Of a stretch of 64,000 nucleotides of DNA, positions 13,020 through 33,991 are shown piece by piece. Source of the stretch: Gammaproteobacteria bacterium (GTDB lineage Bacteria > Pseudomonadota > Gammaproteobacteria > Eutrophobiales > Eutrophobiaceae); NCBI GenBank assembly GCA_965222155.1, contig CBDCTH010000004.1, positions 384,001 through 448,000 on the forward strand. Reading direction: 5' to 3'. Position 1 is the first letter of the stretch. The number at the start of each line of letters is the position of its first letter. Made by a program: the position numbers and the translations under genes. The notes under the pieces are model-generated. The model was not told the origin of the DNA. It saw nothing but the letters and a program-made list of their open reading frames with translations, and searched no databases.

Positions 13020-13150
13020 AATTTGGGACACCCATAAATTTCGTGGTAAAAATTGGGGGAAATTTGGGACACCCATAAAATTTAGGAGTAAAAATCAGGG
13101 GGAAAATTTGGGACACCCATAAAATTTAGGGGTAAAAGTCAGGACACCCG
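13020..13150. repeat. Four direct GGACACCC repeats downstream of the RAYT-like gene
   Basis: atttgggacacccataaa x3 plus caggacacccgta, each carrying a similar short flank. Confidence 0.9.
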
Positions 13151-13341
13151 TAGTATTAAATCGAATGAACCACGCTTTCTATACATTGCGCGGGGATCTC
13201 TTCAGCGACATCAACTCCACGGTAGCTGTATTGCCGGCTGCGCCGGCCTTCAGTAGAGATAAACACAGTAGATGTTGTGCGCTGGTAAACCCCAGCCGGG
13301 CGGCGCGTGGGGTGTGGGGTCAGGCTTGACAGGGTTCAGGT

Positions 13342-14307
13342 TTAGTTCAGCGAGTAGCTGGCCTGCCAGAGCCAATGCTGGCCGATAGCCTGGCAGTATT
13401 TCTTTATGTGCGTGGCAGACCCCAGTGCCTTCTGATGGGAGAGTACAGGAGGCTTCATAGCTGTTTGCCAATGGGCCGGTGTTATGCTGAGTTGGTCAAT
13501 CAGAGGTGGAGCGTCTTCCGGTATGGCTCCTTGCTTATCCTCCCTGATGATTCGACCCGACCAATCCAGAAGCTGCAGATAGTCATCAAAGTAAAATGGA
13601 AGGTGGTAATAATGGTTCGTCACCGTCTCCGGTTTATCTGATTTGAATGGTAGCAGGTCAGAGCTATTCCCAGCCAGTCGGCGTTTGATGGAGGTGTACT
13701 CCGACCGCATTGGGTTGTGGCTGAGACCGGCTCGGACAGGGTTTAATTCCACATAGGCCAAACATTGCAGTAAAGCGGTTTCATCCAGTAATGCTTGCGA
13801 CAGGAAGCGTCCTTCCCAAAAGCGTCCTTTACAGCCATCCTCCACATTGGCCTTACGGGCGATACGTTCGTTCAAATACCCCATGAAGCGGCTGATGCTG
13901 ATCAGGATTTTGCGCATTCGGGCAATCTCCGTATCGACGATTTCCTTTTCCGCATCTGTTAACACATTCCCTGCTTTGAACCGTACCATAAGTGGACTGA
14001 GGCGATATAACTGCTGCCAGCGGGTAAGTATCGTCTCAGCAGAGAGGGATGCAGCCAGCTCCAGGTTGACTTTGACAATCACATGATAATGATTGGACAT
14101 GATGGCATAACCCACCACATCAACACAAAATGCCCGGGATTGCGCTAAAAGCTGTTGTTCCACCCATTCTCTACGGTGTTGGTAGCTTTTCCCGGACAAG
14201 GCGTCGAAGCCACATAGGAAAGCACGGCGAACACAACGGGAAATACAGTGGTAATAACAAGTTTCTGCAAGACAGATTTGCTGGCGCCGAGCAATGGTCA
14301 TGGTCAA
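13342..14307 (-). CDS. RAYT-like HUH (Y1) tyrosine transposase/endonuclease
   Basis: YYHCISRCVRRAFLCG, HUH motif MSNHYHV, GRFWEGRF, catalytic Tyr in YVELNPVRAG; intact 321 aa; repeat clusters on both sides. Confidence 0.9.
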   Translation of the reverse strand: MTMTIARRQQICLAETCYYHCISRCVRRAFLCGFDALSGKSYQHRREWVEQQLLAQSRAFCVDVVGYAIMSNHYHVIVKVNLELAASLSAETILTRWQQLYRLSPLMVRFKAGNVLTDAEKEIVDTEIARMRKILISISRFMGYLNERIARKANVEDGCKGRFWEGRFLSQALLDETALLQCLAYVELNPVRAGLSHNPMRSEYTSIKRRLAGNSSDLLPFKSDKPETVTNHYYHLPFYFDDYLQLLDWSGRIIREDKQGAIPEDAPPLIDQLSITPAHWQTAMKPPVLSHQKALGSATHIKKYCQAIGQHWLWQASYSLN

Positions 14308-14339
14308 CTCCTGTAGTAATTGGGTATCCTGTAACGATT

Positions 14340-14367
14340 ATTGTAATAACGTTTGGCTCAATGTCAA
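14340..14367 (-). promoter_or_regulatory. sigma70-like promoter of the RAYT-like gene
   Basis: Minus strand TTGACA-16 nt-TACAAT, followed by RBS CAGGAG before the ATG. Confidence 0.6.
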
Positions 14368-14394
14368 TAGTCTGTCCGATGTCTAGAACCGGTT

Positions 14395-14592
14395 AATTTA
14401 TGGGTGTCCTGGATTTTTCAGGGCAGGTAATTTGGGACACCCATAAATTTCGTGGGGAGGTAATTTGGGACACCCATAAATTTCGTGGGGAGTATTGGGA
14501 CATACATAAAATCAGTTTATGGGTGTCCCAAATTTGCTCCCAAATTTGTCTCTGGAATTTATGGGTGTCCTGAATTTATGTCCTGAATTTAT
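14395..14592. repeat. GGACACCCAT/ATGGGTGTCC cluster upstream of the RAYT-like gene
   Basis: Direct and inverted copies, including duplicated ggtaatttgggacacccataaatttcgtgggga. Confidence 0.9.
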
Positions 14593-14606
14593 GATAGAGT
14601 ACGGCG

Positions 14607-15989: not shown

Positions 15990-16032
15990 ATCGGTCTTTC
16001 CCTGACTACGTCGCCATGACGGCGCCTCCTCC

Positions 16033-16130
16033 CCGTCGTCATTCCGATGCATGCCGGAATCCAGTGTAATAATGAGTCGCCTCCGGCGACACAGTATAAG
16101 ACTGGATACCGGGTCAAGCCCGGCATGACG
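16033..16130. repeat. Inverted REP doublet (REPIN-like) with internal hairpin
   Basis: gtcattccgatgcatgccggaatccag ... gagtcgcctccggcgacac ... ctggataccgggtcaagcccggcatgac; related copies at 16720-16780, 52810-52903 and 56340-56415. Confidence 0.8.
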
Positions 16131-16218
16131 GACGGGGGACAAGCCCGGTATGGTGACGGGGGCCGGAATGACGCTGGGGAGCATGCGCCGGAGTGACGGC
16201 AGGGGCCGCGACTCCGTT

Positions 16219-16626
16219 CTAGCTTTCCTTATCCAAATTGAGGGCTACGGAGTTGATACAGTAACGCAACCCGGTGGGTTCCGGACCGTCGGGGAAGACG
16301 TGGCCGAGGTGGGCGTCACAGGCGCTGCATAGTACTTCCGTACGCGACCTGCCGAACAGGCTGGGGTCGTCCCTGGTCTTGACCGCGTCCGCATCTTCCG
16401 GCTTGAAAAAACTGGGCCAGCCCGTGCCGGAGTCAAACTTGGCGTCGGAACTGAACAGCGCCTGGCCGCAGCAGACACAGTTGTATGCGCCCGCGTCCTT
16501 GCAGTCATTATACTCGCCGGTAAACGGGCGCTCCGTCCCCTTGCGACGGCATACCTCAAATTGTTCCGGCGACAGCTCCTGTTGCCATTCCTGCTCAGAC
16601 TTGACGACTTTATCGCTCTCAGACAT
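16219..16626 (-). CDS. msrB: Peptide methionine sulfoxide reductase MsrB
   Basis: [35 protein letters not shown]. Confidence 0.97.
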
Positions 16627-16781
16627 GTTCAACCTCCTTCACGAAAGGCTAAAAAGTTTACACCTTAATAATATAATAAAGAATAGTTATCCACCGCGCC
16701 AGAATGGCAAGCACCCCCATCGCCATGCCGGGCTTGACCCGGTATCCATTCTAATAACGTGTCGCCGGAGGCGACTCATTC

Positions 16782-18215
16782 TTACAATACAGGTGAATAA
16801 GCCGCACTATTCACAGGCGGTTGCACGGCTGTTTCCGGCGTTGTCTCCTCGTAGGTCAGGTGCATCAGCATGGCGTAGTACCTGCGGATGTTTTCCACGA
16901 ATTTGACCGGTTCTCTCCCCCTGGCGTGGCCGTGTTTTGTCTGCGAGTACCATTTGGATTGGTTCAACAGCGGCAGGGACTTTTTAACGGCGGCCCAGGA
17001 ATCAGGGTCGCCGCCGTTTTTCTGGGTTAGCACCCTGGCGTCTTCGAGATGGCCGTAGCCGACGTTATAGGAGGCAAGTGCAAACCAGGTGCGGTCCGGC
17101 TCGGCAATCCGGTCCGGCATCTTGTCTGCCAGGGTGGTCAGGTACTTGGCGCCGCCATGGATGCTCAGCACCGGGTCAAGGCGGTCGCTGATACCGATCT
17201 GCCGCGCCGTTTGTTTCGTCAGCATCATCAGCCCGCGTACGCCGGTGGGCGAGCGCGCCGAATTTTTCCAATGGGATTCCTGGTAGCTGATCGCGGCAAG
17301 CAGGCGCCAGTCAAAACCGAACTCGTTCCCGGCATTCATGAAATAAGGTTTCAACTCCGGCAGCAAGTCGTTGTAGCGGTCGATGAAACTGCGCGCCTCC
17401 ACATAATTTAATGAGTCCGCAAACGCATAAACCTGCTCGAGCAGGTCAGCCAGTTGACCCTTGCTCCTGATGTCATCCTGGAACTGCCTGATTGCCCTGA
17501 TGAGAGAATCATCATTCGGGGACTTACTGACAGCCCAGCCCAGGGGCTCAGGCGCGCTCAGGTCAAAGGCAACCCGAAGCTCCGGCAGGGAGATGCGCGC
17601 GTGGGCCACTTCGTTGGACCAGGCCACGGTGTAGAGGATTTCCCCGTTCTCTATCATCTCCAGCAGGTCGAGGTTGTCCTTGTCGTCGTACAGGACCAGG
17701 ATAAGGTCCGGGTGATGGGTTCGCAGCAGGTCAAGCTCCTCCGGGGTAAGGGCATTACGGCCCAGGTGAAGCCGGTGGGGCGCAATCTCAGCCAGCGAGG
17801 ATGGACGTATATAGCCGTAACGGTACACCACCTGCCGGGTCACCCATTGAAAACCGGGGCCGTACGCCAGGGGATCGTCCGGTTCGAAGGTCCTTGTCAA
17901 TCCGGCTGAGGCAACGTCCGCCTGTCCGGAGGCGAGCAGGTCGGTGATTTCCTCCCTGCCGTCAGCCTGGCTGAATTCGAAATCGACGCCCAGCCAGGCG
18001 GCGAACAGTTTGACCAGTTCGAATTCCAGACCGCGTCCGCCTTCCTCATCGTGCAGTTGATAGGTCGTCGGTCCAGCTACGGTGACGACGTTGACCACGC
18101 CCCGCTCCTGGATCTGCTCCAGCCGTGTTTTTTTCTCGGCACACCCCAGCATCAGCAGGTAGGCGGGCAGCACAAGCCCGATTAAAACCGGAACAAATTT
18201 CGCTGTCCTACCCAC
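16782..18215 (-). CDS. mltF: Membrane-bound lytic murein transglycosylase MltF
   Basis: Periplasmic binding-like N-domain plus SLT motifs AAISYQESHW, SPTGVRGLMMLT, ASYNVGYGH, ARGREP. Confidence 0.92.
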   Translation of the reverse strand: MGRTAKFVPVLIGLVLPAYLLMLGCAEKKTRLEQIQERGVVNVVTVAGPTTYQLHDEEGGRGLEFELVKLFAAWLGVDFEFSQADGREEITDLLASGQADVASAGLTRTFEPDDPLAYGPGFQWVTRQVVYRYGYIRPSSLAEIAPHRLHLGRNALTPEELDLLRTHHPDLILVLYDDKDNLDLLEMIENGEILYTVAWSNEVAHARISLPELRVAFDLSAPEPLGWAVSKSPNDDSLIRAIRQFQDDIRSKGQLADLLEQVYAFADSLNYVEARSFIDRYNDLLPELKPYFMNAGNEFGFDWRLLAAISYQESHWKNSARSPTGVRGLMMLTKQTARQIGISDRLDPVLSIHGGAKYLTTLADKMPDRIAEPDRTWFALASYNVGYGHLEDARVLTQKNGGDPDSWAAVKKSLPLLNQSKWYSQTKHGHARGREPVKFVENIRRYYAMLMHLTYEETTPETAVQPPVNSAAYSPVL

Positions 18216-19209
18216 TTTGCGCTAGAACCAGGGAGAAATAGTGGTTATCCGGCTCAAAATGACGGATGACGTTAAGTCCAAAGTCCTCCAGTAAGGTTTC
18301 CAGTTCATCGAAGCAGAACTTGTAGCTCAATTCAGTCAGTATCTTCTCGCCGCTTTCCAGCCGGATGCTCTCGTTGAGCTTGCCCAGCGTGATTTCCTGG
18401 CGCAGCCCGGATACGAGATACATCTCGATTCTGTTCAACTCATTATTATAGACAGCCAAATGAGCAAAATTATCCGCGCGGAAGTTCGCGTCCAGTTCGC
18501 GGTTCAACACCTGCAATACGTTCAGGTTGAACTGGGCGGTAATACCCTGGGCATCGTTATAGGCGGCATTCAGCACCGCAGTGTCTTTAATCCGGTCTGC
18601 CCCCAGCAGCAGAAAATCGCCCGGCTCCATGCGCCGCCGGATGTCACCGATGAAAGCGCGCACCTCCGGGGGGGTGAAATTACCGATGGTGCCGCCCAGG
18701 AACAGGTACATCCCGGCGCCCCGGTAATGCGGCAAATTCTTCAGGCCGGCATGATAGTCCCCCAGCAGCGGCCTGACGTCGAGCCACTTATAATCATGCT
18801 GCAGTTTGCCGGCTGCCTCCAGCAATACGGGTTCACAGATGTCAAACGGCGCATACACGCAGGTATGGCCCTGTTTTTCACAGGCATCAAACAGGTTAGT
18901 CGTTTTTTTCGAGCTGCCGCTGCCCAGCTCGATAAAGTAATCGGGACGAGCCAGCGCGATGATATCGTCACCGTACTGCCGTAACAGCGTATCCTCGGTA
19001 CGGGTCGGGTAATACTCGGGCGTTTCACATATCCGGCCGAACAACTCCGCCCCACGCGCATCATAAAAATACTTGGGAAGCAGGGAACGAGGCCGCTCAA
19101 TCAGACCCGCACGAGCATCCTCCTCCAAGCCAGCAACATGCTTGGCCGGCGTGATCGTAATGCACTGAACAGCACCCGAATATCGATTAAGCTCGGTAAT
19201 GGTATCCAC
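18208..19209 (-). CDS. egtD: L-histidine N-alpha-methyltransferase EgtD
   Basis: PKYFYDARG, PEYYPTRTE, IELGSGSS, FLGGTIGNF, AAYND..G.TA.FNLN, IEMYL. Start probably GTG 19209. Confidence 0.92.
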   Translation of the reverse strand: MDTITELNRYSGAVQCITITPAKHVAGLEEDARAGLIERPRSLLPKYFYDARGAELFGRICETPEYYPTRTEDTLLRQYGDDIIALARPDYFIELGSGSSKKTTNLFDACEKQGHTCVYAPFDICEPVLLEAAGKLQHDYKWLDVRPLLGDYHAGLKNLPHYRGAGMYLFLGGTIGNFTPPEVRAFIGDIRRRMEPGDFLLLGADRIKDTAVLNAAYNDAQGITAQFNLNVLQVLNRELDANFRADNFAHLAVYNNELNRIEMYLVSGLRQEITLGKLNESIRLESGEKILTELSYKFCFDELETLLEDFGLNVIRHFEPDNHYFSLVLAQSG

Positions 19210-19269
19210 TATGTCAAGAATATCCCGAAACAGGTTCGCTACCCGTAATTGTACCCGAGTTGCAGAATA

Positions 19270-19942
19270 AATTTGGGACACCCATAAATTCATTTTATGG
19301 GTGTCCTGAATTAATGGGTGTCCTGAATTAATGGGTGTCCTGAATTAATGGGTGTCCTGAATTAATGGGTGTCCTGAATTAATGGGTGTCCTGAATTAAT
19401 GGGTGTCCTGAATTAATGGGTGTCCTGAATTAATGGGTGTCCTGAATTAATGGGTGTCCTGAATTAATGGGTGTCCTGAATTAATGGGTGTCCTGAATTA
19501 ATGGGTGTCCTGAATTAATGGGTGTCCTGAATTAATGGGTGTCCTGAATTAATGGGTGTCCTGAATTAATGGGTGTCCTGAATTAAATTAATGCCTTGTT
19601 GAACATTACAAACTCATGGGTGTCCTGAATTAATGGGTGGAATTATGGGTGTCCTGAATTAATGGGTGTCCTGAATTAATGGGTGTCCTGAATTAATGGG
19701 TGTCCTGAATTAATGGGTGTCCTGAATTAATGGGTGTCCTGAATTAATGGGTGTCCTGAATTAATGGGTGTCCTGAATTAATGGGTGTCCTGAATTAATG
19801 GGTGTCCTGAATTAATGGGTGTCCTGAATTAATGGGTGTCCTGAATTAATGGGTGTCCTGAATTAATGGGTGTCCTGAATTAATGGGTGTCCTGAATTAA
19901 TGGGTGTCCTGAATTAATGCCTTGTTGAACATTACAAACTCA
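19270..19942. repeat. Perfect 17-bp satellite ATGGGTGTCCTGAATTA (17 + 1 + 16 copies) with a duplicated 26-bp flank
   Basis: Units at 19297-19585, 19616-19632 and 19645-19916; atgccttgttgaacattacaaactca at 19591-19616 and 19917-19942; inverted arm at 19275-19290. Confidence 0.97.
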
Positions 19943-19982
19943 CTGGTTATAATAGTCCCAATTTAGGACATGATATTGGATT

Positions 19983-20285
19983 ATGAGGATTATCGCGCTC
20001 CCGACGCTCAAGAAGTTCTGGGAGCAGAGCCCTGCATATACGGATGCGGCTGAGCCGGTCCGGGCCTGGTATCGGCATGCATTACGAGCTGACTGGGCCT
20101 CACCCGCTGATGTCAAACAGGATTTTGGCAATGCCAGTATTCTGAAGGACGGACGAGTGGTGTTTAATATAGCCGGTAACAAGTATCGGCTGGTTGTCTG
20201 GATTAATTACGCTTATCGAGTGGTTTACATACGGTTTATCGGAACACACGCCCAATATGATCAAATCGACGCACAAGTTATTTAG
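19983..20285 (+). CDS. higB: HigB-family toxin
   Basis: MRIIA..TLKKFW, WASPADVKQDFGNASIL, RVVFNIAGNKYRLV, RFIGTHAQYD; TTGAAC-17-TATAAT promoter upstream. Confidence 0.9.
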   Translation: MRIIALPTLKKFWEQSPAYTDAAEPVRAWYRHALRADWASPADVKQDFGNASILKDGRVVFNIAGNKYRLVVWINYAYRVVYIRFIGTHAQYDQIDAQVI

Positions 20286-20303
20286 CCTCTGGAGGAACAA
20301 GTG

Positions 20304-20684
20304 ATGGACGTTAAACCCATCAAAACCGATGCCGACTATCAAGCGGCGCTGCAAGAGATAGCAACGCTGATGACGGCGCGATTGGATTCACCGGAGGGTG
20401 AAAGGCTGGATGTATTGACGACACTGGTTGAGGCTTATGAACGGAAGCATTATCCGCTTGAATTACCCGACCCGGTGGCAGCCATCAAGTTTGAAATGGA
20501 ACAAAAGGGTCTAACGGCCAAAGATCTGGAACCGATGATTGGCAGGAGAAACCGGGTCTATGAAGTTTTGAATCGCAAACGTTCACTTACCCTTAAAATG
20601 ATTTGGCGCCTGCATGAGCAGCTAGGCATCCCTGCCGAGTCATTAATCAAACAGGCCCCTGGTCCGGATAACCAGGCCGCATAA
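20304..20684 (+). CDS. higA: HigA-family HTH antitoxin
   Basis: KPIKT.ADYQAAL, LVEAYE..HYP, C-terminal HTH (VYEVLNRKRSLT); directly follows higB. Confidence 0.9.
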   Translation: MDVKPIKTDADYQAALQEIATLMTARLDSPEGERLDVLTTLVEAYERKHYPLELPDPVAAIKFEMEQKGLTAKDLEPMIGRRNRVYEVLNRKRSLTLKMIWRLHEQLGIPAESLIKQAPGPDNQAA

Positions 20685-20718
20685 ACGCTTTATCCAGACC
20701 TGGACGGTAACGTTCTGG

Positions 20719-22029
20719 ATGACGAAGCTAACAAATTATGTGTTTGACTTGATGGCCACACCGGTCTGCCGCCAGTGTCTTTTGCCGTTCCTCCTGCCCG
20801 GCATTGCCCCATCCATCGCTTTGGGCAACGAAGCATCAGGCACACAAGTTCCCGACCCTGAAGCGCCCGGGCTAACCTGGTCCATCGCCCGCTACGAAAC
20901 GCGTATTGCCGAACTGGAGGCCGCCGAAGGTCCCCATGCAGCCGAGCTGGTTGAAGCCCACTCCAGCCTGGGCATGCTCTACCAGCGGGCCGGAGACCAC
21001 GGCCAGGCGATTGCAGTATTGCGGGACGCCCTGCAGTCGGCGCGCGTCAACGATGGGCTGCACAATATGAGCCAGGTCGCCATCCTGGAGGCCATCATCG
21101 ACAGCCAGGTCGCCCTGAGCGCCAGGGATGATCTGCGGCGCAACTATGAATACCTGTTCTGGCTGTACCAGCGCAACTACGGCGATTACAGCGCCGGCCT
21201 GGTGCCGGTGATCAAGAGGGTGGGGCAGTGGTACTTCGACCTCTACAACTTCAGCCCCCCGAACACCACGGTGGAACCCCTGATCGCGGCGGACGCCCTG
21301 TATGCCAAGGCGCTGAAAATCCTCCCGGGGGATGCGCCGTCCCGGGACCGGGCAGACATCTTATATAAGGTGGCCGTCATCAACCACCACGTCGCTGAGG
21401 ACGTGCAGGCCCCGATGCTGTCCCACCGGGAAATACGGGAAGCCATGATCCCCCACGGCCGGGGCAGCCCCTACCTCAACGAAACGGCCGTGCGCCAGTA
21501 CTACGCCGACCAGAGCTTCCACAAGGGCAAGCGCTCGCTGAAGCGCATCATCGAGACCTATGAGAAAACCCTGCCCGACGGCATCATGGACTACACCCGG
21601 GCGCTGGTATTCATGGGCGACTGGCTGACCGTGCAACGCCGGGTCCTGGAGGGCGCCCGCCTGTACCAGCGCGCCTGGGCCGCCCTGAAAGAACACAACG
21701 CCGACCCGGCGCAGGTGGATGAACTGTTCGGCGAACCGCAACCCATAGAGCAACTCCCCATCCCGGGCGAGCCGGAGCCGCAAGTCGGCGCCGACAACTA
21801 CTACGTGGATGCCCTGCTGGACGTACCCGAGTCAGGCTGGCCCACCAACATCAGGATACAGGCCATCCACCCGCCCGGCGAAACCACCCTGATCCAGCGC
21901 GCCGAACGCGGTATCGCCGCCACCCGCTACCGCCCCCGCTACTGCAACGGCCAACCGGTCGTCACCAGCGACGTCCCCCTGCGCTTCATCTTCAAGCACA
22001 AAGACCAACCCGGCTGGCTGCATTATTAA
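20719..22029 (+). CDS. Secreted TPR-like protein with TonB C-terminal-like domain (copy 1)
   Basis: Signal-like N-terminus, helical repeats, C-terminal VDALLDVPESG..NIRI...RYRPRY.NGQPV motif. Confidence 0.65.
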   Translation: MTKLTNYVFDLMATPVCRQCLLPFLLPGIAPSIALGNEASGTQVPDPEAPGLTWSIARYETRIAELEAAEGPHAAELVEAHSSLGMLYQRAGDHGQAIAVLRDALQSARVNDGLHNMSQVAILEAIIDSQVALSARDDLRRNYEYLFWLYQRNYGDYSAGLVPVIKRVGQWYFDLYNFSPPNTTVEPLIAADALYAKALKILPGDAPSRDRADILYKVAVINHHVAEDVQAPMLSHREIREAMIPHGRGSPYLNETAVRQYYADQSFHKGKRSLKRIIETYEKTLPDGIMDYTRALVFMGDWLTVQRRVLEGARLYQRAWAALKEHNADPAQVDELFGEPQPIEQLPIPGEPEPQVGADNYYVDALLDVPESGWPTNIRIQAIHPPGETTLIQRAERGIAATRYRPRYCNGQPVVTSDVPLRFIFKHKDQPGWLHY

Positions 22030-22100
22030 ACCTCTAAATTCGGGACACCCATAAATTGATTTTGTGGGTGTCCCGAATTAATGGGTGTCCCAAATTAATG

Positions 22101-22635
22101 CGTGAGCAGGAAAGCGGGCAGGACCAGGCCGGTTAAAATGGCAACACGTTGCACGGCATTAACCACTTTGCGCCAGAACCAGGGAGAAATAGCGGTTGTC
22201 CGGCTCAAAATGACGGATGACGTCAAGTCCGAATTCGTCCAGCAGTGTCTCCAATTCATCATGGTCAAACTTGTAACTCAATTCGGTCAGTATCTTCTCA
22301 CCGCGTGCCAGCCGGATGCTCAAATCCAGCCTGCCCAGAGTAATCTGCTGGTCCAGTCCGGATACCAGGTACATCTCAATCCTGTGCAACTCATTATTAT
22401 AGAAAGCCAAATGCGCGAAATTATCCGCGCGGAAGGCCGCGTCCAGTTCCCGGTTGAGCACCCGCAACACGTTCAGGTTGAACTCGGCGGTAATCCTCTG
22501 GGCATCGTTATAGGCGGCATGCAGCACGTCATTGTCTTTTATCCGGTCTGCCCCCAGCAGCAGAAAATCGCCCGGCTGCATGCGCCGGCGGATGTCGCCG
22601 ATGAAGGCGCGTACCTCGGGGGGGGGGGGGGGGTA
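22101..22635 (-). pseudogene. Diverged fragment of the egtD 3' half plus mltF 5' end, bounded by GGACACCC repeats
   Basis: Homologous to 18150-18675; translation matches the EgtD C-terminus, then MVNAVQRVAILTGLVLPAFLL versus MltF MGRTAKFVPVLIGLVLPAYLL. Confidence 0.88.
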
Positions 22636-22882
22636 AATCCGGGATAAATTCAGGACACCCATAAAATGGGGCAAATTCGGGACATCCATAAAATAGGGGT
22701 CAATCCAGGGGGATAAATTTGGGAGGGTAAATTTAGGAGGTAAATTTAGGACACCCATAAAATGGGCAAGAATAAATCCTGGACACCCACGAAATATTTT
22801 ATGGATGTCCTGAATCTATGGGTGTCCTAAATTTGCGTCCTGAATTGCGACCTATAATATCCAGGGGATACTGACAGATTTG

Positions 22883-23140
22883 TTACTCGTAATGATATCT
22901 GAGTTGAGCGATATACAAGTTATTACCGGCAACCTTGTAGACAATTCTATGCTCGTCATTGATCCGTCTGGACCAATAGCCCGTCAGGTTATGTCTCAGT
23001 GCTTCGGGTTTACCAATTCCTGCAAAGGGATCGCGCTGGATAGCCTTGATCAATGTGTTTATTCGCTTCAGCGTTGCTTTGTCCGTTTTCTGCCAGTAAA
23101 GGTAATTCTCCCATGCCGTGGAAGAAAACGTGAGTTTCAT
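22883..23140 (-). CDS. yoeB: Txe/YoeB toxin
   Basis: AWENYLYWQ, DPFAGIGKPEAL, WSRRINDEHRIVY, RYHY. Confidence 0.95.
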   Translation of the reverse strand: MKLTFSSTAWENYLYWQKTDKATLKRINTLIKAIQRDPFAGIGKPEALRHNLTGYWSRRINDEHRIVYKVAGNNLYIAQLRYHYE

Positions 23141-23388
23141 TCAATAAGTTCCCGTTCCGTGCCCTTTCCGGCTTCCAGTTCGGCGATGGATTCCAGCAGG
23201 CGCCTTGAATTGGCCGGGGCTCGCAGCAGATAGGCGGTTTCTTCCAAGGCCTGATAATCATCCAGGGACAGCATGACCACGGCCGATTCCCGCTTACGGG
23301 TAATAATGATGGGGGTATGGTCGTTGCATACTTTTTCCATCGTCTTCGCCAGGTTCGCCCGGGCAGCGGTGTAACTAATAGCATCCAT
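23137..23388 (-). CDS. yefM: YefM antitoxin
   Basis: ISYTAARANLA, PIIITR, LEETAYLLRAPAN. Confidence 0.95.
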   Translation of the reverse strand: MDAISYTAARANLAKTMEKVCNDHTPIIITRKRESAVVMLSLDDYQALEETAYLLRAPANSRRLLESIAELEAGKGTERELIE

Positions 23389-23686
23389 ATCAGCCTCCGG
23401 TTTCTATTGTACAGGATAATGTACGTATATCCTACACGCAAAAGCAAATGATGATCAACCCGTTACAAATTCAGGACACCCATAAAATGGGACAAATCCG
23501 GGACACCCACAAAATATTTTGTAGATACCCTTAATTTATGGGTGTCCTGAATTAGCTTCCTGAATTAGCTGTCTTTCGCATTGACAGGAGCCTGAACAGA
23601 ATTAATACTGTCGATAACATTCGATATCCTTGACAACAGGTTTCGGGTTGGAGAATGGTTAATGCAATGAGGCACAAAACAGGTAA

Positions 23687-23920
23687 ATGGATTTTGAGAT
23701 TATCAGCATTATTCGTCATTCTGAAACCATCGCACAAGGCTTCAGGATTCGCGAGTTGAAACGCCTGCAGAAGATATATGGATCAGGCCGGTGGCGAAAA
23801 CGTAAAGGTGAAACTACTGTCAGGCTGGCTGATGGAACCATATTGGGTGCAGAAGTTCACTGGTACGAAGCTCACGGTATAGGAAAACGTGAATTCAAGA
23901 TTAAACGGTATCTGAAATAA
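23687..23920 (+). CDS. Conserved hypothetical basic protein (possible toxin)
   Basis: 77 aa, AEVHWYEAHGIGK motif; coupled to the next small gene. Confidence 0.7.
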   Translation: MDFEIISIIRHSETIAQGFRIRELKRLQKIYGSGRWRKRKGETTVRLADGTILGAEVHWYEAHGIGKREFKIKRYLK

Positions 23921-23925
23921 CACTC

Positions 23926-24135
23926 ATGGCAAATACAAAATTTGCGGTCTGTATTGATAACTCAGGTTACGAGGCATCTCTGGAGCGTCGAAAATTATAT
24001 CAACTGATCCCGGATGATGAGGCGGCAAAACATCATCAGTTGCGGGTCACGGATGAGTCAGGGGAAGATTATCTCTATCCGGAATCCTGTTTTGTGACTG
24101 CGGCCTTGCCCGAAGCAAAGAAAGCGGCAACATAA
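23926..24135 (+). CDS. Conserved hypothetical acidic protein (possible antitoxin/immunity)
   Basis: 69 aa, CIDNSGYEASLE, RVTDESGEDYLYP. Confidence 0.7.
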   Translation: MANTKFAVCIDNSGYEASLERRKLYQLIPDDEAAKHHQLRVTDESGEDYLYPESCFVTAALPEAKKAAT

Positions 24136-24310
24136 TATAACCAAATCACCTCTGGTTATACCGGACAACCCCGTCATACCGAAAGAATCAGCCCGGTATA
24201 AATCCGGGACACCCACGAAATATTTTGTGGATGTCCTGAATTTATGGATGTCCTGAATTTGCCACTGGCATGGTAGTATCTTATATATTAAAAAGTATGC
24301 ATCCGCCCTG

Positions 24311-25606
24311 ATGACCGAACCCGTCTGCCGATATTTTTTGCCATTGCTTGTTATCGGCATTGTTCCATCCTTCTCTCCGGCCAACGAGCCGGCAGACATC
24401 CACCGCCCTGACTCTACTGTCGCTACACAAGCCCCCTCCGATCCCGGGCTGACCCGGTCCATCGCAAGCTATGAAACCCGCATTGCCGAACTGGAGGCTG
24501 CCGGAGGACCTCATGCAGCCGAGCTCGTCGAAGCCCACTCCAGCCTGGGCATGCTCTACCAGCGGGCCGGAGACCACGGCCAGGCGATTGCAGTATTGCG
24601 GGACGCCCTGCAGTCGGCGCGCGTCAACGATGGGCTGCACAGCATGAGCCAGGTCGCCATCCTGGAGGCCATCATCGACAGCCAGGTTGCCCTGGGCGCC
24701 AGGGATGATCTGCGGCGCAACTATGAATACCTGTTCTGGCTGTACCAGCGCAATTACGGCGATCACAGCGCCGGCCTGGTGCCGGTGATCAAGAGGGTGG
24801 GCCAGTGGTACTTCGACCTCTACAACTTCAGCCCCCCGAACACCACGGTGGAACCCCTGATCGCGGCGGACGACCTGTATGCCAAAGCGCTGAAAATCCT
24901 CCCGGAGGATGCGCCGCCCCGGGACCGGGCAGACATCTTATATAAGGTGGCCGTCATCAACCACCACGTCGCTGAGGACGTGCAGGCCCCGATGCTGTCC
25001 CACCGGGAAATACGGGAAGCCATGATCCCCCACGGCCGGAGCAGCCCCTACCTCAACGAAACGGCCGTGCGCCAGTACTACGCCGACCAGAGCTTCCACA
25101 AGGGCAAGCGCTCGCTGAAGCGCATCATCGAGACCTATGAGAAAACCCTGCCCGACGGCATCATGGACTACACCCGGGCGCTGGTATTCATGGGCGACTG
25201 GCTGACCGTGCAACGCCGGGTCCTGGAGGGCGCCCGCCTGTACCAGCGCGCCTGGGCCGCCCTGAAAGAACACGACGCCGACCTGGCGCTGGTGGATGAG
25301 TTATTCGGCGAACCGCAACCCATAGAGCAACTCCCCATCCCGGGCGAGCCGGAGCCGCAAGTCGGCGCCGACAACTACTACGTGGATGCCCTGCTGGACG
25401 TACCCGAGTCAGGCTGGCCCACCAACATCAGGATACAGGCCATCCACCCGCCCGAACAGACCACCCTGGTCCGCCGCGCCGAGCGCGGCATCGCCGCCAC
25501 CCGCTACCGCCCCCGCTACCGCAACGGCCAACCGGTCGCCAGCACCGACGTCCCCCTGCGCTTCATCTTCAAGCACAAAGACCAACCCGGCTGGCTGCAT
25601 TATTAA
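24311..25606 (+). CDS. Secreted TPR-like protein with TonB C-terminal-like domain (copy 2)
   Basis: Near-identical to 20719-22029 after the first ~50 aa. Confidence 0.65.
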   Translation: MTEPVCRYFLPLLVIGIVPSFSPANEPADIHRPDSTVATQAPSDPGLTRSIASYETRIAELEAAGGPHAAELVEAHSSLGMLYQRAGDHGQAIAVLRDALQSARVNDGLHSMSQVAILEAIIDSQVALGARDDLRRNYEYLFWLYQRNYGDHSAGLVPVIKRVGQWYFDLYNFSPPNTTVEPLIAADDLYAKALKILPEDAPPRDRADILYKVAVINHHVAEDVQAPMLSHREIREAMIPHGRSSPYLNETAVRQYYADQSFHKGKRSLKRIIETYEKTLPDGIMDYTRALVFMGDWLTVQRRVLEGARLYQRAWAALKEHDADLALVDELFGEPQPIEQLPIPGEPEPQVGADNYYVDALLDVPESGWPTNIRIQAIHPPEQTTLVRRAERGIAATRYRPRYRNGQPVASTDVPLRFIFKHKDQPGWLHY

Positions 25607-25822
25607 ACCTCTAAATTCGGGACACCCATAAATTGGGTTTGGGAGGGATGAATTTGGGACACCCATGAATTGAATTTATGGGTGTCCTGAAATTGGAAAT
25701 TAATGGGTGTCCTGAATTACTCTGCCATTTGACATCATAATTCACTATGTAACTTACAAAATACATAATATTTTCACTTTTTGACTTCATTTTTCCAGTA
25801 AACCCCGTATAATGACCATAAA

Positions 25823-26998
25823 ATGAATTCAAAACCCCCGTTCATGTTCGAAAGACTCATTAAAAAACCGCTGGAATCACGCAAAAGTTTTTTTCTCTTC
25901 GGCCCAAGAGGGACCGGCAAGACCACCTGGTTGAAACACCATCTCCCCGATGCGCTGTTTATTAACCTGCTCCAATCTGAATTCTACAATCGCCTGACTG
26001 CGAACCCCGGATACCTCAGAGAGTTCATTCCCCCCGACTACACAAAGCGGGTTATTATTGACGAGATACAGCGTATCCCTGCGCTGCTGAACGAAGTACA
26101 TGACCTGATCGAATCAAGAAAACTGGACTTTGTCCTGACCGGTTCAAGCGCCAGGGCGTTAAGACGGAAAGGGGTCAACCTGTTAGCCGGCCGTGCCCTG
26201 ACGTATGCCATGCACCCGTTGACGGTGACTGAGCAGCAGGACGCATTCGACCTGCGCAAATCCATACGGCTCGGCCATTTACCCGCCCGGTTCAACGAGA
26301 ACGACCCTGGCAAATATCTCAAGGACTACGTGCAGACATACCTCAGGGAAGAAGTCATGCAGGAGGGCCTGACCCGCAACATCGGCCACTTTTCCCGATT
26401 TCTGGAAGTAGCCAGCTTCTCCCAGGGAACAACGGTCAATATCAGCGCCGTAGCACGCGAGGCACAGGTCGAGCGACCGGTTGCGGAGAACTATTTCTCC
26501 ATATTGGAAGACCTGCTCATAGCCGTGCGCCTGCCGGTATTCAGCCGCAAGGCAAAAAGAAAACTCATCACACACAATAAATTTTATTTTTTCGATGTCG
26601 GCGTGTATCGAGCGATACGGCCCGTCGGACCCCTGGACTCCGATGCAGAACTGGACGGTCCTGCATTGGAAACACTGGTGCTCCAGGAACTCAGGGCGCT
26701 GAACGATTATTTGGAATGCGATTACCGGATATACTTCTGGCGCACACGAACCAACCTGGAAATCGATTTTGTCCTGTACGGGCCGCGCGGCCTGCTGGCA
26801 ATCGAGATTAAACGCTCGGCGCATGTCCAATTCAAACAGACACGATCGTTGCGGGAATTCAAAAAAGATTATCCCCCCGCCAGGTGCTACGTGTTCTACG
26901 GTGGAACCACTCCCCGATACATGGAAGACGTCACCGTGCTGCCCATCGAATACGCACTGAAGAATCTAGACCGGATGTTAACGGACAACCTGAACTGA
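25823..26998 (+). CDS. AAA+ ATPase (AAA_14 + DUF4143 type)
   Basis: GPRGTGKT Walker A, IIDEIQ Walker B, LTGSS, KFYFFDVG, EIDFV..AIEIK nuclease-like tail. Confidence 0.85.
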   Translation: MNSKPPFMFERLIKKPLESRKSFFLFGPRGTGKTTWLKHHLPDALFINLLQSEFYNRLTANPGYLREFIPPDYTKRVIIDEIQRIPALLNEVHDLIESRKLDFVLTGSSARALRRKGVNLLAGRALTYAMHPLTVTEQQDAFDLRKSIRLGHLPARFNENDPGKYLKDYVQTYLREEVMQEGLTRNIGHFSRFLEVASFSQGTTVNISAVAREAQVERPVAENYFSILEDLLIAVRLPVFSRKAKRKLITHNKFYFFDVGVYRAIRPVGPLDSDAELDGPALETLVLQELRALNDYLECDYRIYFWRTRTNLEIDFVLYGPRGLLAIEIKRSAHVQFKQTRSLREFKKDYPPARCYVFYGGTTPRYMEDVTVLPIEYALKNLDRMLTDNLN

Positions 26999-27119
26999 TA
27001 TGGGTGTCCCGAATTTATGGGTGTCCTGAATTAGCTTCCCGTCCTGAACTAGCCCTTAGAAAGATTCAGGGACGGGTATCAACCCGTCCGTAATTCATGG
27101 GTGTCCTAAATTAAGGGTT

Positions 27120-27341
27120 CTAACAGTTAGCGGAAAACTCATCAACGGTAAGGCCGGCAGAGCGAATCAGGCTCCTCAAAGTTCCTTTGGCAACCTCCTT
27201 GTGGTCAGGCACAGAAAGCGTCGCTATTTCTCCTTCTTTTGTCATAATAATGTGGCTGCTTCTCCGGCGCGCCACGTTCCAACCAAAGCCCTTGAAAATC
27301 CGCACAACTTCCTGCCCACTTAAAGAGGGTAATACTGCCAC
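27120..27341 (-). CDS. hicA: HicA toxin
   Basis: GWNVARRRSSHIIM, SVPDHKEVAKGTLRSLI. Confidence 0.88.
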   Translation of the reverse strand: MAVLPSLSGQEVVRIFKGFGWNVARRRSSHIIMTKEGEIATLSVPDHKEVAKGTLRSLIRSAGLTVDEFSANC

Positions 27342-27547
27342 TAAGCTGCGACCTCTATTTGCTGTGTCTCAATAGTTAACGGCAACCCCTTTTCTGCACG
27401 TACCTCAAGACAGAGAGCAATCGCTTCCTTAATATTGTCCAGTGCTTGCTCTCGGGTCTCACCCTGACTGACACAACCCGGAATCGCGGGACATTCAACA
27501 ATCCATACCCCATCTTCGTCCCGGTCAACCGTTATATTGAATTTCAT
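27341..27547 (-). CDS. hicB: HicB antitoxin
   Basis: DEDGVWIVECPAIPGCVSQGETREQAL. Confidence 0.9.
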   Translation of the reverse strand: MKFNITVDRDEDGVWIVECPAIPGCVSQGETREQALDNIKEAIALCLEVRAEKGLPLTIETQQIEVAA

Positions 27548-27721
27548 AATCTTCTTGGCCCCCGGCCACTGAGTTCATCACATTTATGAAAAGCGTACTA
27601 AAAAACGATTCAAGGATAAACCAAGGGCGAAAAAGAACAACAATTTCATTTTCAGTTGAATTCCAAATCAGACTGGATGCCGGGTGAAGCCCGGCATGGC
27701 GACGGGGACGCCGGGTCACAG

Positions 27722-28060
27722 CAAATCCGGGACCAAATCCGGGACACCCATAAAATCGTTTTGTGGGTGTCCCGAATTAATGGGTGTCCTGAATTAATGG
27801 GTGTCCTGAATTAATGGGTGTCCTGAATTAATGGGTGTCCTAATGGGTGTCCTGAATTAATGTCCTGAATTAATGGGTGTCCCGAATTAATGGGTGTCCT
27901 GAATTAATGGGTGTGAATTAATGGGTGTCCCGAATTAATGGGTGTCCCGAATTAATGGGTGTCCCGAATGAATTAATGGGTGTCCCGAATTAATGGGTGT
28001 CCCGAATTAATGGGTGTCCCGAATTAAGGGTGTCCCGAATTAATGGGTGTCCCGAATTAG
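27722..28060. repeat. Second ATGGGTGTCC(T/C)GAATTA satellite with truncated units
   Basis: About 17 tandem full or partial units after one inverted GGACACCCAT arm. Confidence 0.93.
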
Positions 28061-28074
28061 CTTTCCCAAGTCGC

Positions 28075-28608
28075 TCAGCCAAACACCCGCGGCACAAAAC
28101 CCACGTCGTTGGTGATACTTGCGCTGCTGCCGGTGGCCCGGATCACATACAGGCCCTGCCGTTGCGCATACACCTGTACGGACGCATCCGCCTTTAGGTA
28201 TGCCACCGCACCGTAGATCTTCTTTCCTTTGTAGACTGGCGCATAATCCGTGAACTTGCCCAGCTTCTCAAGAAACTGCGCCACGTCCTCTGCGCGCAGC
28301 GTGGTCTTTACCTCCACTACCACCACTTCTTCACCATTCTCAGCCAGGATATCAAACTCAAAATGCTCGCCATTACGCCGGCCATTCAATCGGGTATGCG
28401 TGGACCGTACGGTTATCCCTCGGGCGTGCAACAAGGGAACCAGGTCACCTTCCACCAGGCTCTCCATCAGTGCGCCCCACTGGCTGGTAAATAACCCTTC
28501 CAGCTTTTTCATCCGCCGGTTGGCCTCCTTGTGCTCATTGGACACCTCGCGCAGGATGGCCCGGATTTCTTCGAAGGTGGCGGGTTCACGTTGCAGTTCT
28601 TTTTCCAT
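28075..28608 (-). CDS. Coiled-coil + PD-(D/E)XK-like nuclease-fold protein (DUF3782-like)
   Basis: WGALME, EFDILA, VVVEVKTTL, IYGAVA, GLYVIR. Confidence 0.7.
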   Translation of the reverse strand: MEKELQREPATFEEIRAILREVSNEHKEANRRMKKLEGLFTSQWGALMESLVEGDLVPLLHARGITVRSTHTRLNGRRNGEHFEFDILAENGEEVVVVEVKTTLRAEDVAQFLEKLGKFTDYAPVYKGKKIYGAVAYLKADASVQVYAQRQGLYVIRATGSSASITNDVGFVPRVFG

Positions 28609-29159
28609 GATGCATTTCTCCTTATCAGTTCAGGTGGCGTTCACGAATAGCGCGGAGCCGGGCATGTAATACAAACCCGTCCCCGTGTCAGACATATTAT
28701 TATAGATAACGCGAAATAAGCAAATTCAGGATAAGCAAATTCAGGACACCCATAAATTCACTTTGCAGAAAGAACCGGGCCAGGCTTCAACCCGTCATAC
28801 CGGCCACCCCCCCTCGTCATACTCGTCATACCCCCCCTCTCGTCATACCGCCACCCCCCTCTCGTCATACCGCCCCCCTCTCGTCATACCGGCCAGGGAT
28901 TGGCCGGTACCCAGCCACAAGGACGTATAATAAAACACCTCCCCCAGCACCCCCCCACAAACACAAACCCCACCCCCCCGTTGCAACAAAGCAACACCTC
29001 CCCCCAAACCATCCACCCCCCAAACCACCCCCCCAAAACCCCCCAAAACCCAACCAAAACCCAACCACAAAACACCGCCACAAAAACTGACACGTATGTT
29101 GCCTGCTGATAAAACTTTAACTATACTGGGCTGAATTTTTTAACCGGATTAGACAATTT

Positions 29160-29450
29160 ATGCAGACTACAACCGTATCGCAACTCAAAATGTCGATGAG
29201 CGCCTATTTACGTCAGGTCAAGGCCGGTGAAGAACTGTTAATTACTGAGCATGGTCGTCCGGTTGCGCGTCTGTTGCCCGTTGCGGACCTTGCGTCTCTA
29301 CCCGAGCACCTGGCTGACATGGAAAAAAAAGGCTTGCTCAAACGTGCCGAGAAATCCTTGCCGGCGGATTTTTGGACCCTGCCTCGTCCCTCAGACCCAC
29401 AGGCGACAGTACGTTCGGCGGTCTTGCAGGAGCGCAAACAGGGCTGGTGA
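29160..29450 (+). CDS. Phd/YefM-family antitoxin
   Basis: VSQLK..MSAYLRQVKAGEELLITEHGRPVARL. Confidence 0.88.
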   Translation: MQTTTVSQLKMSMSAYLRQVKAGEELLITEHGRPVARLLPVADLASLPEHLADMEKKGLLKRAEKSLPADFWTLPRPSDPQATVRSAVLQERKQGW

Positions 29451-29905
29451 AATTCTGGGATACGTCGGCCATTGTGCCCCTGTATATGCATGAGCCGAAC
29501 TCGACCATAGTACAGCACCTGATCGCTGAGGATTCCTCAATCGTGGTATGGTGGGGCACGCACAGCGAATGCATATCCGCATTGATGCGACAGGTAAGAT
29601 CAGGCGGTTTCACAACGTCAGACGAACACGCCGCCCGTCAGGTATTGCATACTCTGATGCAATCCTGGGCAGAAATACAACCAGGTGAAGCATTACGCAA
29701 CACGGCTGAACGTTTATTGGCAGTGCATCCCTTACGCGCCGCGGATGCCTTGCAACTGGCCGCTGCCATCCAGTGGTGTCAGGGGCTCACAACCGGTCAG
29801 GGCCTTGTTGCCTTTGATCAACGGCTGCGTGACGCGGCATATCGGGAAGGCTTTACTGTTCTTCCCGGGAGTGAGGGCATCCCGCCCTCGACGGGGGCAG
29901 GCTGA
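29447..29905 (+). CDS. vapC: VapC PIN-domain toxin
   Basis: From GTG 29447: KFWDTSAIVPL, LRAADALQLAAA, VAFDQRL; overlaps the antitoxin stop. Confidence 0.88.
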   Translation: MKFWDTSAIVPLYMHEPNSTIVQHLIAEDSSIVVWWGTHSECISALMRQVRSGGFTTSDEHAARQVLHTLMQSWAEIQPGEALRNTAERLLAVHPLRAADALQLAAAIQWCQGLTTGQGLVAFDQRLRDAAYREGFTVLPGSEGIPPSTGAG

Positions 29906-29944
29906 TAAAATCAGCGGGACCAGCCGTTTTTTTCTGTTATACTG

Positions 29945-30373
29945 TTGACATGTCAGTTGAATACTGACATATTGCGGCCATTTTACGGCATGGGGGGGAT
30001 ATGTCGGGGAGAAAGGAGCACAGTTTAGTTCCGTGATACTGGCAAATGTCCGTCTTGGAATAGTGTAATCCGGGGCCAGTATCCAGGAAACATAAACCTG
30101 TTCACTTTTTTGATATTTTTTCCTGCCAGGTAGTTGACATCGTTGCGGAATACTGACATAGTGCTATTATCTTACAACACGGGGGAGAACGGCAGGTCAA
30201 ATCCTTGACAGACCTGCGGTATTTTTCTATTATGCTATTGACATACTTGTTGAATATCGGCATATTGCAACCGATAAAAAAATATGTAACATGGTTGACA
30301 AGCTGTAAACGCGCAGTATGATCAAGAATATTATAAATTATCTGTTGACTTATATCCGTCAGGGTGAGATATT
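29945..30373 (+). promoter_or_regulatory. Tandem array of six sigma70-like promoters upstream of RTX copy 1
   Basis: TTGACA at 29945, 30134, 30205, 30238, 30295 and TTGACT at 30345, followed after 16-17 nt by CATATT, CATAGT, TATTAT, CATATT, TATGAT and GATATT. Confidence 0.7.
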
Positions 30374-30479
30374 TGTGCGCAGTGATAATTTTTCTGTAAA
30401 AATGTGTAATAATGCGCAATAATGCGATAAACCAAAAGAATTCGTTTACTTCTATCTGATAGCACAGGAGAAAAAAGTT

Positions 30480-33745: not shown

Positions 33746-33991
33746 TCAACCTGAGCATCAAAACCAGCTTCCTGATTTCACGGAAGTAAACGATCACAGG
33801 GGCGGTTTAGCCGGGTTTCCCGTTTAAATCAGCCCCTGTTTTATTAAAAGGGGTCGGTGACAAATGAGAACAAAGTGATCGGGGTCAGGTCGCACAATGC
33901 GCAGTGTTAAAACCCGATTGACAACGAGCCTCAGCCAAGCTACACTGCCTGAACGATTAACTGGAAGTTGTAAGAAAAGGAGGTACACCCG

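Follow-up and report, generated by a model that had tools for sequence, protein, structure and literature searches.

We found that a single-tyrosine (Y1) HUH transposase gene in a 64-kb stretch of a Eutrophobiaceae genome is paired with a short DNA motif, the 10-mer GGACACCCAT, which forms the inverted ends of the element carrying the gene and occurs in many further copies around it. The stretch, hereafter the window, is the whole DNA that was analyzed (64,000 nt; C4:384001-448000 of the source genome G000, a 4.55-Mb assembly in 12 contigs). The most probable reading, in our judgment, is that the locus represents a variant of the systems formed by repetitive extragenic palindromes (REPs) and REP-associated tyrosine transposases (RAYTs), of the kind called TIRtrons after their terminal inverted repeats (TIRs). 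It would thus be an HUH element with locally spread, gene-less copies of its ends and not a gene-capture machine, as the first-pass annotation of the window had proposed.

The gene, its promoter-like site, and the motif clusters on both sides of it are listed in Table 1, and for each of them our analysis agreed with the first-pass annotation. The 321–amino acid (aa) protein carries the motifs NHYH (the HUH motif), WE, and AYVELNPVRAG (the tyrosine motif). Among 28 homologs, H73, H75, Y185, N189, and P190 were invariant, as was the entire N72-H73-Y74-H75 stretch, and a single tyrosine motif was present. The Pfam search found no helicase domain in the protein, and it thereby differs from IS91/ISCR and the Helitrons, rolling-circle HUH elements that capture genes with a two-tyrosine Rep or Rep-helicase. 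The protein scored below the cut-offs of both Pfam Y1_Tnp (20.7 bits, cut-off 23) and NCBIfam REP_Tyr_transpos (41.7 bits, cut-off 80), and a sequence search of the Protein Data Bank (PDB) gave nothing at E values up to 1; the core of the protein is split by inserted domains. The AlphaFold2 (AF2) model built with the 28 homologs reached a pLDDT of 87.2 and a pTM of 0.88. Its top Foldseek match was 4er8_A, the E. coli RAYT-REP complex with bound REP hairpin (E 4.1e-5, TM 0.63, target-normalized), followed by 2ec2, 2f4f, 2a6o, and 2xm3, with the IS200, IS608, and ISDra2 TnpA proteins among these next matches. The structural match and the invariant catalytic residues bear out the RAYT-like identity suggested earlier. 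Judged from its sequence, the product of 13342-14307 is a single-tyrosine HUH single-stranded DNA (ssDNA) transposase of the RAYT or TIR-associated (TIRYT) kind. More than 7900 homologs of ~320 aa exist, some of which are labeled transposase or RayT.

In these features, the protein matches TnpA-Y1 subclass 2.3 as given in the available portion of the published description (PMC6006769). It shares with this subclass the NHYH, WE, and YV[D/E]LNP motifs, its length (321 aa vs a median of 325), the insertions beta1:alphaA and beta3:alphaC (model residues 26-43 and 82-135), W164-E165, the TS in the tail (T205-S206), and the occurrence in Gammaproteobacteria, some of whose genomes carry several copies. 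As far as that portion of the survey goes, automatic and manual searches gave no REP-like sequences for subclass 2.3, and the TIRYTs listed there fall in subclasses 2.1, 2.2, and 2.5, not 2.3 (PMC6006769). In contrast, an inverted end motif runs through the whole family studied here, and a repeat family has proliferated in one genus. Two further observations concern the gene itself. Within residues 20-44 (window ~14176-14250, the beta1-alphaA insertion), H20, C25, C32, and H44 are invariant and C21 nearly so, and this segment possibly forms a metal-binding knuckle. The idea that the region 3′ of the gene holds a conserved RNA or a second end structure was rejected, as the 220-nt spacer from the stop codon to the first downstream motif has an identity of only 0.26-0.44 within the genus, compared to 0.8-0.9 for the coding sequence.

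The 10-mer occurs 106 times exactly in the window, on both strands, while 0.18 copies are expected and none of 100 shuffles reached this count. Its extended consensus is a 21-nt unit, AATTYR-GGACACCCAT-AAATT. Inverted pairs are predicted to form ssDNA hairpins with stems of 19-22 bp and z scores of -7 to -8.5; the six inverted clusters that were folded, which are dimers of the type seen in REP doublets forming hairpins (REPINs), gave z from -6.97 to -8.46. Neither direct-repeat clusters (z -0.65) nor the tested 84-nt stretch of the first 17-nt array (19297-19380; z -0.34) folded better than shuffles, and the latter thus lacks hairpin potential. Of the copies in the window, 49 are in two clusters (19276-19909 and 27742-28052), mostly as 17-nt tandem arrays, which the first-pass annotation had missed. 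The motif extends over 8.9-64 kb of the window and includes spacers of the conserved core, such as those on either side of rnfB. Inward-facing pairs enclosing >300 bp of cargo are found in the window only around the HUH gene and at 43298-44627. Neither Rfam at the gathering threshold nor ARAGORN detected anything in the window. When the motif strings were looked up in full-text literature, only unrelated, primer-type hits were found among the matches listed, which lends weak support to the absence of the motif from print. A second short repeat, of the GTCATACCG or CGTCATTCCG type, is present in direct and inverted copies at 15990-16220 and 28790-28850 and occupies spacers without the main motif.

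The pairing of enzyme and motif is best seen across the genus, for which 22 other genomes were surveyed, 13 with the HUH gene and 9 without. All 13 genomes with the gene have 26-247 motif copies, while 8 of the 9 without it have 2-19; a reversed-pattern control occurs 0-10 times per genome. The exception is G014, which lacks the gene and has 160 copies. In this genome, the segment corresponding to window 13041-14578 is absent, and its place is taken by one perfect inverted pair with a 22-bp stem (z -7.58). Thus, a hairpin pair encloses the HUH gene, and without the gene, the element is reduced to the bare pair; by sequence comparison, the loss of the gene from G014 is recent. A second genome, G009, carries four 1,260-bp copies of the element with 96.5-97.7% mutual identity and unrelated flanks. 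Their bounds are exact, with GGACATCCAT at one end and ATGGATGTCC or ATGAGTGTCC at the other, and extra motif copies lie just beyond each end. These near-identical, motif-bounded copies in unrelated flanks indicate that the whole element moved recently in the same genus. Across the genus genomes that carry the gene at the place it occupies here, it is single-copy. Between the orthologous cysG and msrB genes, the motif is absent in G000, forms one pair in G014, and is present six times in G019; these spacers are too diverged between species for a target site or footprint to be read.

We found the same arrangement at 74 loci outside the genus that encode proteins of 41-48% identity, in Psychromonas, Oceanospirillaceae, Photobacterium, Grimontia, Colwellia, Thiodiazotropha, and others. 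The 8-mer GGACACCC (at most one mismatch) occurs at 2.94/kb in the 400-bp flanks of the genes compared to 0.50/kb in the rest of these loci, and three control 8-mers gave 0.37-0.60/kb. The copies are strictly arranged: upstream, 88 are on the plus and 2 on the minus strand, while downstream, 72 are on the minus and 5 on the plus strand. The nearest copies lie at medians of -81 upstream and +239 after the match end downstream, a fixed distance of the kind that characterizes TIRtrons; in the window, the nearest downstream copy is 222 nt past the stop codon. Of the 69 loci whose flanks reach 200 bp or more on each side, 44 have copies on both sides. An identical variant is found at the two ends in 13 of 40 loci, with 5.8 expected from permutation. 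GGACACCC predominates upstream of the gene and GGACATCC or AGACACCC downstream of it, and the core across the family is GGACA[C/T/G]CC. Proliferation, measured by 10-mers shared between flanks, is confined, among the loci so compared, to the genus of the window, with 39-47 copies per 20 kb in 3 of 5 sufficiently flanked loci and at most 8 elsewhere. Together, these sequence comparisons establish that the element of the HUH gene ends in inverted GGACACCCAT copies and that the link between enzyme and motif, which had been proposed for this one locus, is real and far wider than could be seen from the window.

Within the source genome, the copies cluster around the gene. Of 224 in total, contig C4 (622 kb) has 154 and contig C12 (3.5 Mb) only 55, and 30 of the 34 clusters on C4 fall between 379.8 and 458.8 kb (79 kb). 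As is the case for REPs, the repeat is abundant outside genes, with 133 of the 154 C4 copies not wholly within a called open reading frame (ORF). Gap occupancy, defined as the share of gaps of at least 30 bp that hold the motif and based on crude ORF calls, is 16/32 in the variable island, which extends from egtD to the type I secretion genes (window 19.25-50.8 kb). It is 4/10 and 1/8 in the left and right core flanks of the window, 1/11 in the 14 kb of C4 before the window and 3/11 in the 22 kb after it, 2/323 in C4 0-370 kb, 0/80 in C4 470-622 kb, and 15/2110 on C12. Three closed genomes gave a similar picture: 75 of 100 listed copies within 119 kb in G019, 64 of 100 listed copies within 131 kb in G020, and, in G022, 50 of the first 100 copies within 53 kb adjoining the gene, with 73 more copies in that genome. 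Concentration near the HUH gene was thus seen in all four genomes checked (G000, G019, G020, and G022). Because gap occupancy is uneven and the copies cluster near the gene, the motif is not a uniform intergenic repeat; equal density everywhere, which the first-pass annotation had listed as evidence against its own proposal, was not what we found. The remaining copies of G022 are mostly pairs with a fixed 33-nt start-to-start spacing, located at ~30 sites over the chromosome.

Such regional confinement is unusual in a mobile repeat, and it favors an explanation in which the motif has been adopted by the host, mainly as a site for protein binding or transcript processing such as an operator, terminator, mRNA-stabilizing hairpin, or regional nucleoid mark, with the HUH protein as a domesticated DNA binder that has ceased to mobilize DNA in the genus. 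The upstream copy, which in most family members lies 8-10 nt ahead of the TTGACA box, would suit autoregulation; the gene is single-copy and at the same place across the genus; and hairpin pairs stand just past stop codons, e.g., 14 nt after a TPR gene. However, the catalytic H, H, and Y are invariant, whole elements have been copied recently in G009, orthologous gaps vary between species, as in the cysG-msrB spacer, and no regulatory role is obvious for the 17-nt arrays of 13-34 copies. We therefore consider domestication unlikely.

The window lies across a variable region. Its parts at 1-19.3 and 50.8-64 kb are collinear with G019, while the stretch from egtD to the type I secretion genes varies (31.5 kb here, 22.6 kb in G019), with the variable region running to ~50.8 kb. 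After egtD, the genomes G019, G014, G013, and G016 all have repeats and a TPR gene, and beyond these comes a set of units that differs from genome to genome, some units being common but reordered; the order in G019 is TPR, PD-(D/E)XK, yefM-yoeB. In the window, Pfam and NCBIfam confirmed the list of units that had been drawn up for 19.3-29.9 kb, two ORFs being without a family match. The motif is indeed present in every inter-unit junction, although the one at 24.2 kb has degenerate copies only.

From this arrangement, the first-pass annotation had drawn a platform for gene capture and shuffling run by the HUH enzyme. Two hairpin pairs would be cut on one strand and rejoined, and the unit circle would be reinserted at another pair. 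Several observations suit such a platform: a hairpin pair in every inter-unit gap, the different unit order in G000 and G019, the PD-(D/E)XK unit with the same repeat junctions in three contexts, the repeat-bounded gene fragment at 22100-22650, and the concentration of the motif here and not genome-wide. In addition, IS608-type enzymes excise DNA between two hairpins. The position of the homology-block ends at 19.25-29 kb appeared to agree as well, since 9 of 11 are at most 30 nt from a motif and 10 of 11 at 0-57 nt. However, 65% of non-ORF positions are also within 30 nt of a motif (22% of random positions, 6/26 ORF boundaries), so that the breakpoint test, at 82% vs a 65% noncoding background, does not separate the models; the earlier expectation that breakpoints fall at the motif came true in number but without discriminating power. 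The joints listed in Logan contigs from four public runs for 19930-27770 are located at motif clusters. In 14 of 15 of them, the short side consists of 20-27 letters within repeats, and the remaining one (37-38-letter side) links two near-identical hairpin pairs; such joints arise from repeats and carry no weight for or against excision, circles, or strain polymorphism.

The geometry and content of the units argue against the platform. The HUH gene and the mobile element of G009 are enclosed by inward-facing motifs. In contrast, the units lie between complete hairpin pairs, and thus, the motifs adjoining them face outward; apart from the HUH gene, only 43298-44627 has an inward-facing pair around more than 300 bp. 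The units are found on both strands and comprise one to three genes each, so that they face both ways and several are multi-gene. They also occur without the repeat. Of six toxin-antitoxin (TA) loci in G014 and G016 with homology to units of the window, five have no adjoining motif, and none of the ~24 PD-(D/E)XK paralogs of the genome, including those of an eight-copy array, lies within 12 kb of one. G003, which lacks the HUH gene, has no motif in the 18 kb examined even at one mismatch, but its island still contains the TPR gene and, closely packed after it, a PIN pair and an HTH pair. A homolog of the second ORF of 23687-24135 (72% identity) adjoins an HTH gene in the same genome. G004 has one motif copy in 40 kb (one mismatch allowed). 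The island of G002 contains decayed motif clusters near hicAB and PD-(D/E)XK genes, which limits the motif-free comparison to G003 and G004. Homology of yefM-yoeB ends at the operon, with unrelated flanks. Repeat copies at the TPR 3′ end, at both PD-(D/E)XK ends, and at the egtD 5′ end are common to species and paralogs and are therefore old copies that travel with duplications. The proposed capture and shuffling of genes was not supported, and we regard a cassette platform as improbable.

We also considered that the tyrosine recombinase at 49090-50073 could have built the island, acting as an integron-like or island integrase, with the repeats being bystanders or its recombination sites. The gene belongs to the Phage_integrase family and stands at the right edge of the island, at the same place as in G014 and G013, and a 67%-identical paralog is present on C12. 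The protein has no integron-integrase match, however, and its Xer-type score of 49.9 bits is far below the NCBIfam cut-off of 220. The gene is 20 kb from the array at 19-29 kb, it is present in G004, G005, and G010, which have 2-6 motif copies only, and it has no nucleotide match in the 100 kb of G019 that carry a similar array. We consider this explanation very improbable, more so than either of the two discussed above.

According to the reading that we favor, that of an HUH element with locally spread end copies, the enzyme would cut and rejoin the ends as ssDNA, in the manner of IS200/IS605 TnpA and E. coli TnpA-REP. Gene-less ends would have multiplied in the genus to 26-247 copies per genome, as inverted hairpin pairs (REPIN-like or resembling miniature inverted-repeat transposable elements, MITEs), single copies, and tandems. 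This spread would be mostly local, with most copies within ~100 kb of the gene, and the copies would settle in the spacers of the adjacent, pre-existing hypervariable island (egtD to the type I secretion genes), whose many short, independently transcribed accessory modules would leave tolerant gaps. The modules themselves (TA pairs, TPR, ATPase, and nuclease genes) would arrive and multiply by their own routes, the repeats marking the gaps. Their independence from the motif is supported by TA and nuclease genes without it elsewhere and by the motif-free TA pairs in the G003 island. The repeat clusters probably also supply the homology by which duplications, deletions, and reshuffling occur.

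Several points weigh against this reading. The evidence for action of the enzyme on the motif consists of sequence and analogy, and the reading leaves the reason for the local spread without explanation. G013 has the HUH gene and yet only 26 motif copies. Both the junctions that the PD-(D/E)XK unit keeps in its three contexts and the repeat-bounded gene fragment fit repeat-guided movement of units as well. The 21-nt unit is non-palindromic and lacks a GTAG foot, and it is thus not a canonical REP, which is a palindrome with a 5′ GT[AG]G. Last, the genomes of the genus and the 74 family loci are mutually related, so that counts over them overstate independence.

Compared to the REP/REPIN-RAYT systems of E. 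coli (TnpA-REP) and Pseudomonas (REPINs), the locus shares a single-copy Y1-HUH gene with its own short repeat on either side, the abundance of this repeat outside genes, often as inverted hairpin-forming dimers, and the co-occurrence of gene and repeat across genomes, with repeats outlasting the loss of the gene for a time. The best structural match, 4er8, is from the same group. The differences, in addition to the missing GT[AG]G foot and palindrome, are a core that is conserved across genera instead of changing with the lineage, copies that stay near the gene instead of being dispersed, long 17-nt tandem arrays, and a 321-aa protein with two inserted domains and a long tail. TIRtrons, in the available part of their description, consist of a Y1 gene with terminal inverted repeats at a fixed distance, and some genomes have moderately abundant families of dimers or clusters (PMC3733652). 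The HUH gene likewise has inverted end repeats at a fixed distance, exact in the G009 element, but the TIR motif given in that part is GGGGWSAS (PMC3733652), whereas it is GGACACCC here.

IS200/IS605 elements (IS608 and ISDra2) have the same Y1-HUH fold, and like them, a short element moves as a whole in G009. Here, however, the ends are inverted copies of the 10-nt core, often two or more per end, and not subterminal hairpins in direct orientation; tnpB is lacking, and a single-stranded mechanism is assumed by analogy. With sedentary chromosomal integrons, the island shares small, TA-rich modules that are split by hairpin-forming repeats and vary in content among relatives. In contrast to them, we found no IntI beside the array, the only tyrosine recombinase being the distant one at 49090-50073, no attC architecture (no Rfam match in the window), no single promoter, and no shared orientation of mostly promoterless single-ORF cassettes with one attC each; the modules hold up to three genes and are also found without the repeat. 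A comparable proposal exists for prochlorosin genes beside picocyanobacterial TnpA-REP, where the enzyme was proposed to diversify the neighboring array and likened to integrons (10.1101/2020.03.09.984088). In the accessible part of that work, the enzyme belongs to subclass 2.1 and no repeat family was detected; the authors subsequently noted that causality is not established (10.1101/2020.03.09.984088). The corresponding idea for the window, that the subclass 2.3 enzyme acts mainly on nearby hairpin pairs and excises, duplicates, or reorders modules, so that the island from egtD to the type I secretion genes would be an HUH-run analogue of a sedentary integron with GGACACCC as its recombination site, is one to which we give little credence.

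Table 1. The HUH gene, motif clusters, and units of the window (positions are those of the window; z, folding score).
Feature	Position	Strand	Remarks
Motif clusters flanking rnfB, conserved core	8958-9780	.	
Downstream (right-end) cluster, three copies	13026-13120	.	Inverted relative to upstream end
Y1-HUH transposase gene, RAYT/TIRYT-like	13342-14307	-	Intact 321-aa frame; matches TnpA-Y1 subclass 2.3
Promoter-like site of HUH gene	14340-14367	-	TTGACA-16-TACAAT, 11/12 positions
Upstream (left-end) cluster, five copies	14400-14570	.	Nearest copy directed into HUH gene; position fits family-wide upstream copy
Hairpin pair, then 34 tandem copies in two blocks	19276-19909	.	Pair z -6.97; mostly 17-nt period
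Unit: higB (19983-20285), HTH antitoxin (20301-20684), TPR gene 1 (20719-22029)	19983-22029	+	Pfam
REPIN-like hairpin pair	22043-22090	.	19-bp stem, z -8.46
egtD 3′ end and mltF start fragment	22100-22650 (unit listed as 22159-22758)	-	Old duplicate
Motif cluster (+ + -)	22653-22827	.	
Unit: yoeB-yefM	22883-23388	-	Pfam
Hairpin pair	23474-23547	.	z -7.08
Unit: two small ORFs	23687-24135	+	No Pfam/NCBIfam match
Degenerate hairpin pair	24198-24262	.	24.2-kb junction, degenerate copies only
Unit: TPR gene 2	24311-25606	+	Pfam; 96% nt identity to TPR gene 1 over 1199 nt
Nested hairpin pairs (+ + - -)	25620-25712	.	z -7.82
Unit: AAA_14/DUF4143 ATPase	25823-26998	+	Pfam
Motif cluster (- - -)	27000-27106	.	
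Unit: hicA-hicB	27120-27547	-	Pfam
Hairpin pair and 13 further tandem copies	27742-28052	.	
Unit: Hjc-like PD-(D/E)XK gene	28075-28608	-	Pfam Hjc; multi-copy family in genome
Single motif copy	28744-28753	+	
Unit: Phd-family antitoxin and PIN toxin	29160-29905	+	Pfam/NCBIfam
Further motif copies, all + up to 43298, then two -	34257-44837	.	Within longer composite repeats near paralogous small genes and IS elements
Tyrosine recombinase, Phage_integrase family	49090-50073	+	Right edge of variable island
Nested motif cluster	58237-58442	.	Conserved right flank; z -8.44
Motif cluster	63826-63978	.	Conserved right flank

Several features of the units and of the rest of the island were noted in their own right. 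The egtD fragment covers only positions 152-303 of the Pfam Methyltransf_33 profile, and the egtD-mltF fragment is 80-84% identical to 18149-18674 (80% over 18149-18448). At its right end, ~22617-22633, a run of ~16 G differs in the contigs of two public runs (+6 G in X4, -4 in X6). The ~24 PD-(D/E)XK paralogs of the genome have 75-77% nucleotide identity; their eight-copy tandem array, with a period of ~1 kb, is located at G000 C12:933916-941276, and four tandem paralogs are present in the G014 island. Farther right, 30420-34215 and 45216-48992 form a large inverted duplication with 86.8% identity that contains a gene with a PPC domain and one with RTX repeats, within which 33874-34304 and 44790-45220 are 100% identical over 431 bp. 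This duplication brackets a 34-45 kb segment of IS elements and small paralogous genes.

Within the bracketed segment, a DDE_3 (IS630-like) transposase gene at 35274-36560 (minus strand) is inserted into a motif-bearing composite repeat, whose halves are at 35227 and 36780, and 38357-39547 is a second, HTH transposase-like ORF. A 206-bp repeat at 37102-37307, with ~30 genome copies of 95-99.5% identity, is MITE-like and unrelated to GGACACCCAT. Five paralogous small-gene units are found at 34494-34905, 39614-40081, 40237-40704, 40998-41521, and 42732-43339. The four at 39.6-43.3 kb share the end context ...CAGAGTAATCCA-GGACACCCAT-AAAT..., and an extra copy of the unit at G000 C12:466879-467497 retains the motif. 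Their proteins have no Pfam match or coiled-coil noise only.

Subclass 2.3 is large, the count of more than 7900 homologs being a lower bound, and the available part of the 2018 survey gave no DNA partner for it (PMC6006769). On sequence evidence, we propose as new a cognate motif for this subclass that is conserved across genera, with the proviso that the supplementary lists of the two surveys (PMC6006769 and PMC3733652) may hold relevant members or repeats. The regional confinement of a repeat family around its gene is likewise new. An integron-like reading of the island remains a minority possibility. For biochemistry, the end motif offers defined substrates: the 21-nt unit, the hairpin pair, and the two exactly bounded ends of the G009 element (1,260 bp). 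The clustering near the gene is atypical of REPINs and points to cis or local action, which could explain the pile-up of repeats in the neighboring variable island. In addition, a single genus presents a series from a multi-copy mobile element (G009) through a single-copy gene with repeats (G000, G019, G020, and G022) to a lost gene with retained repeats (G014), and this series bears on the origin of REP-like families from transposon ends.

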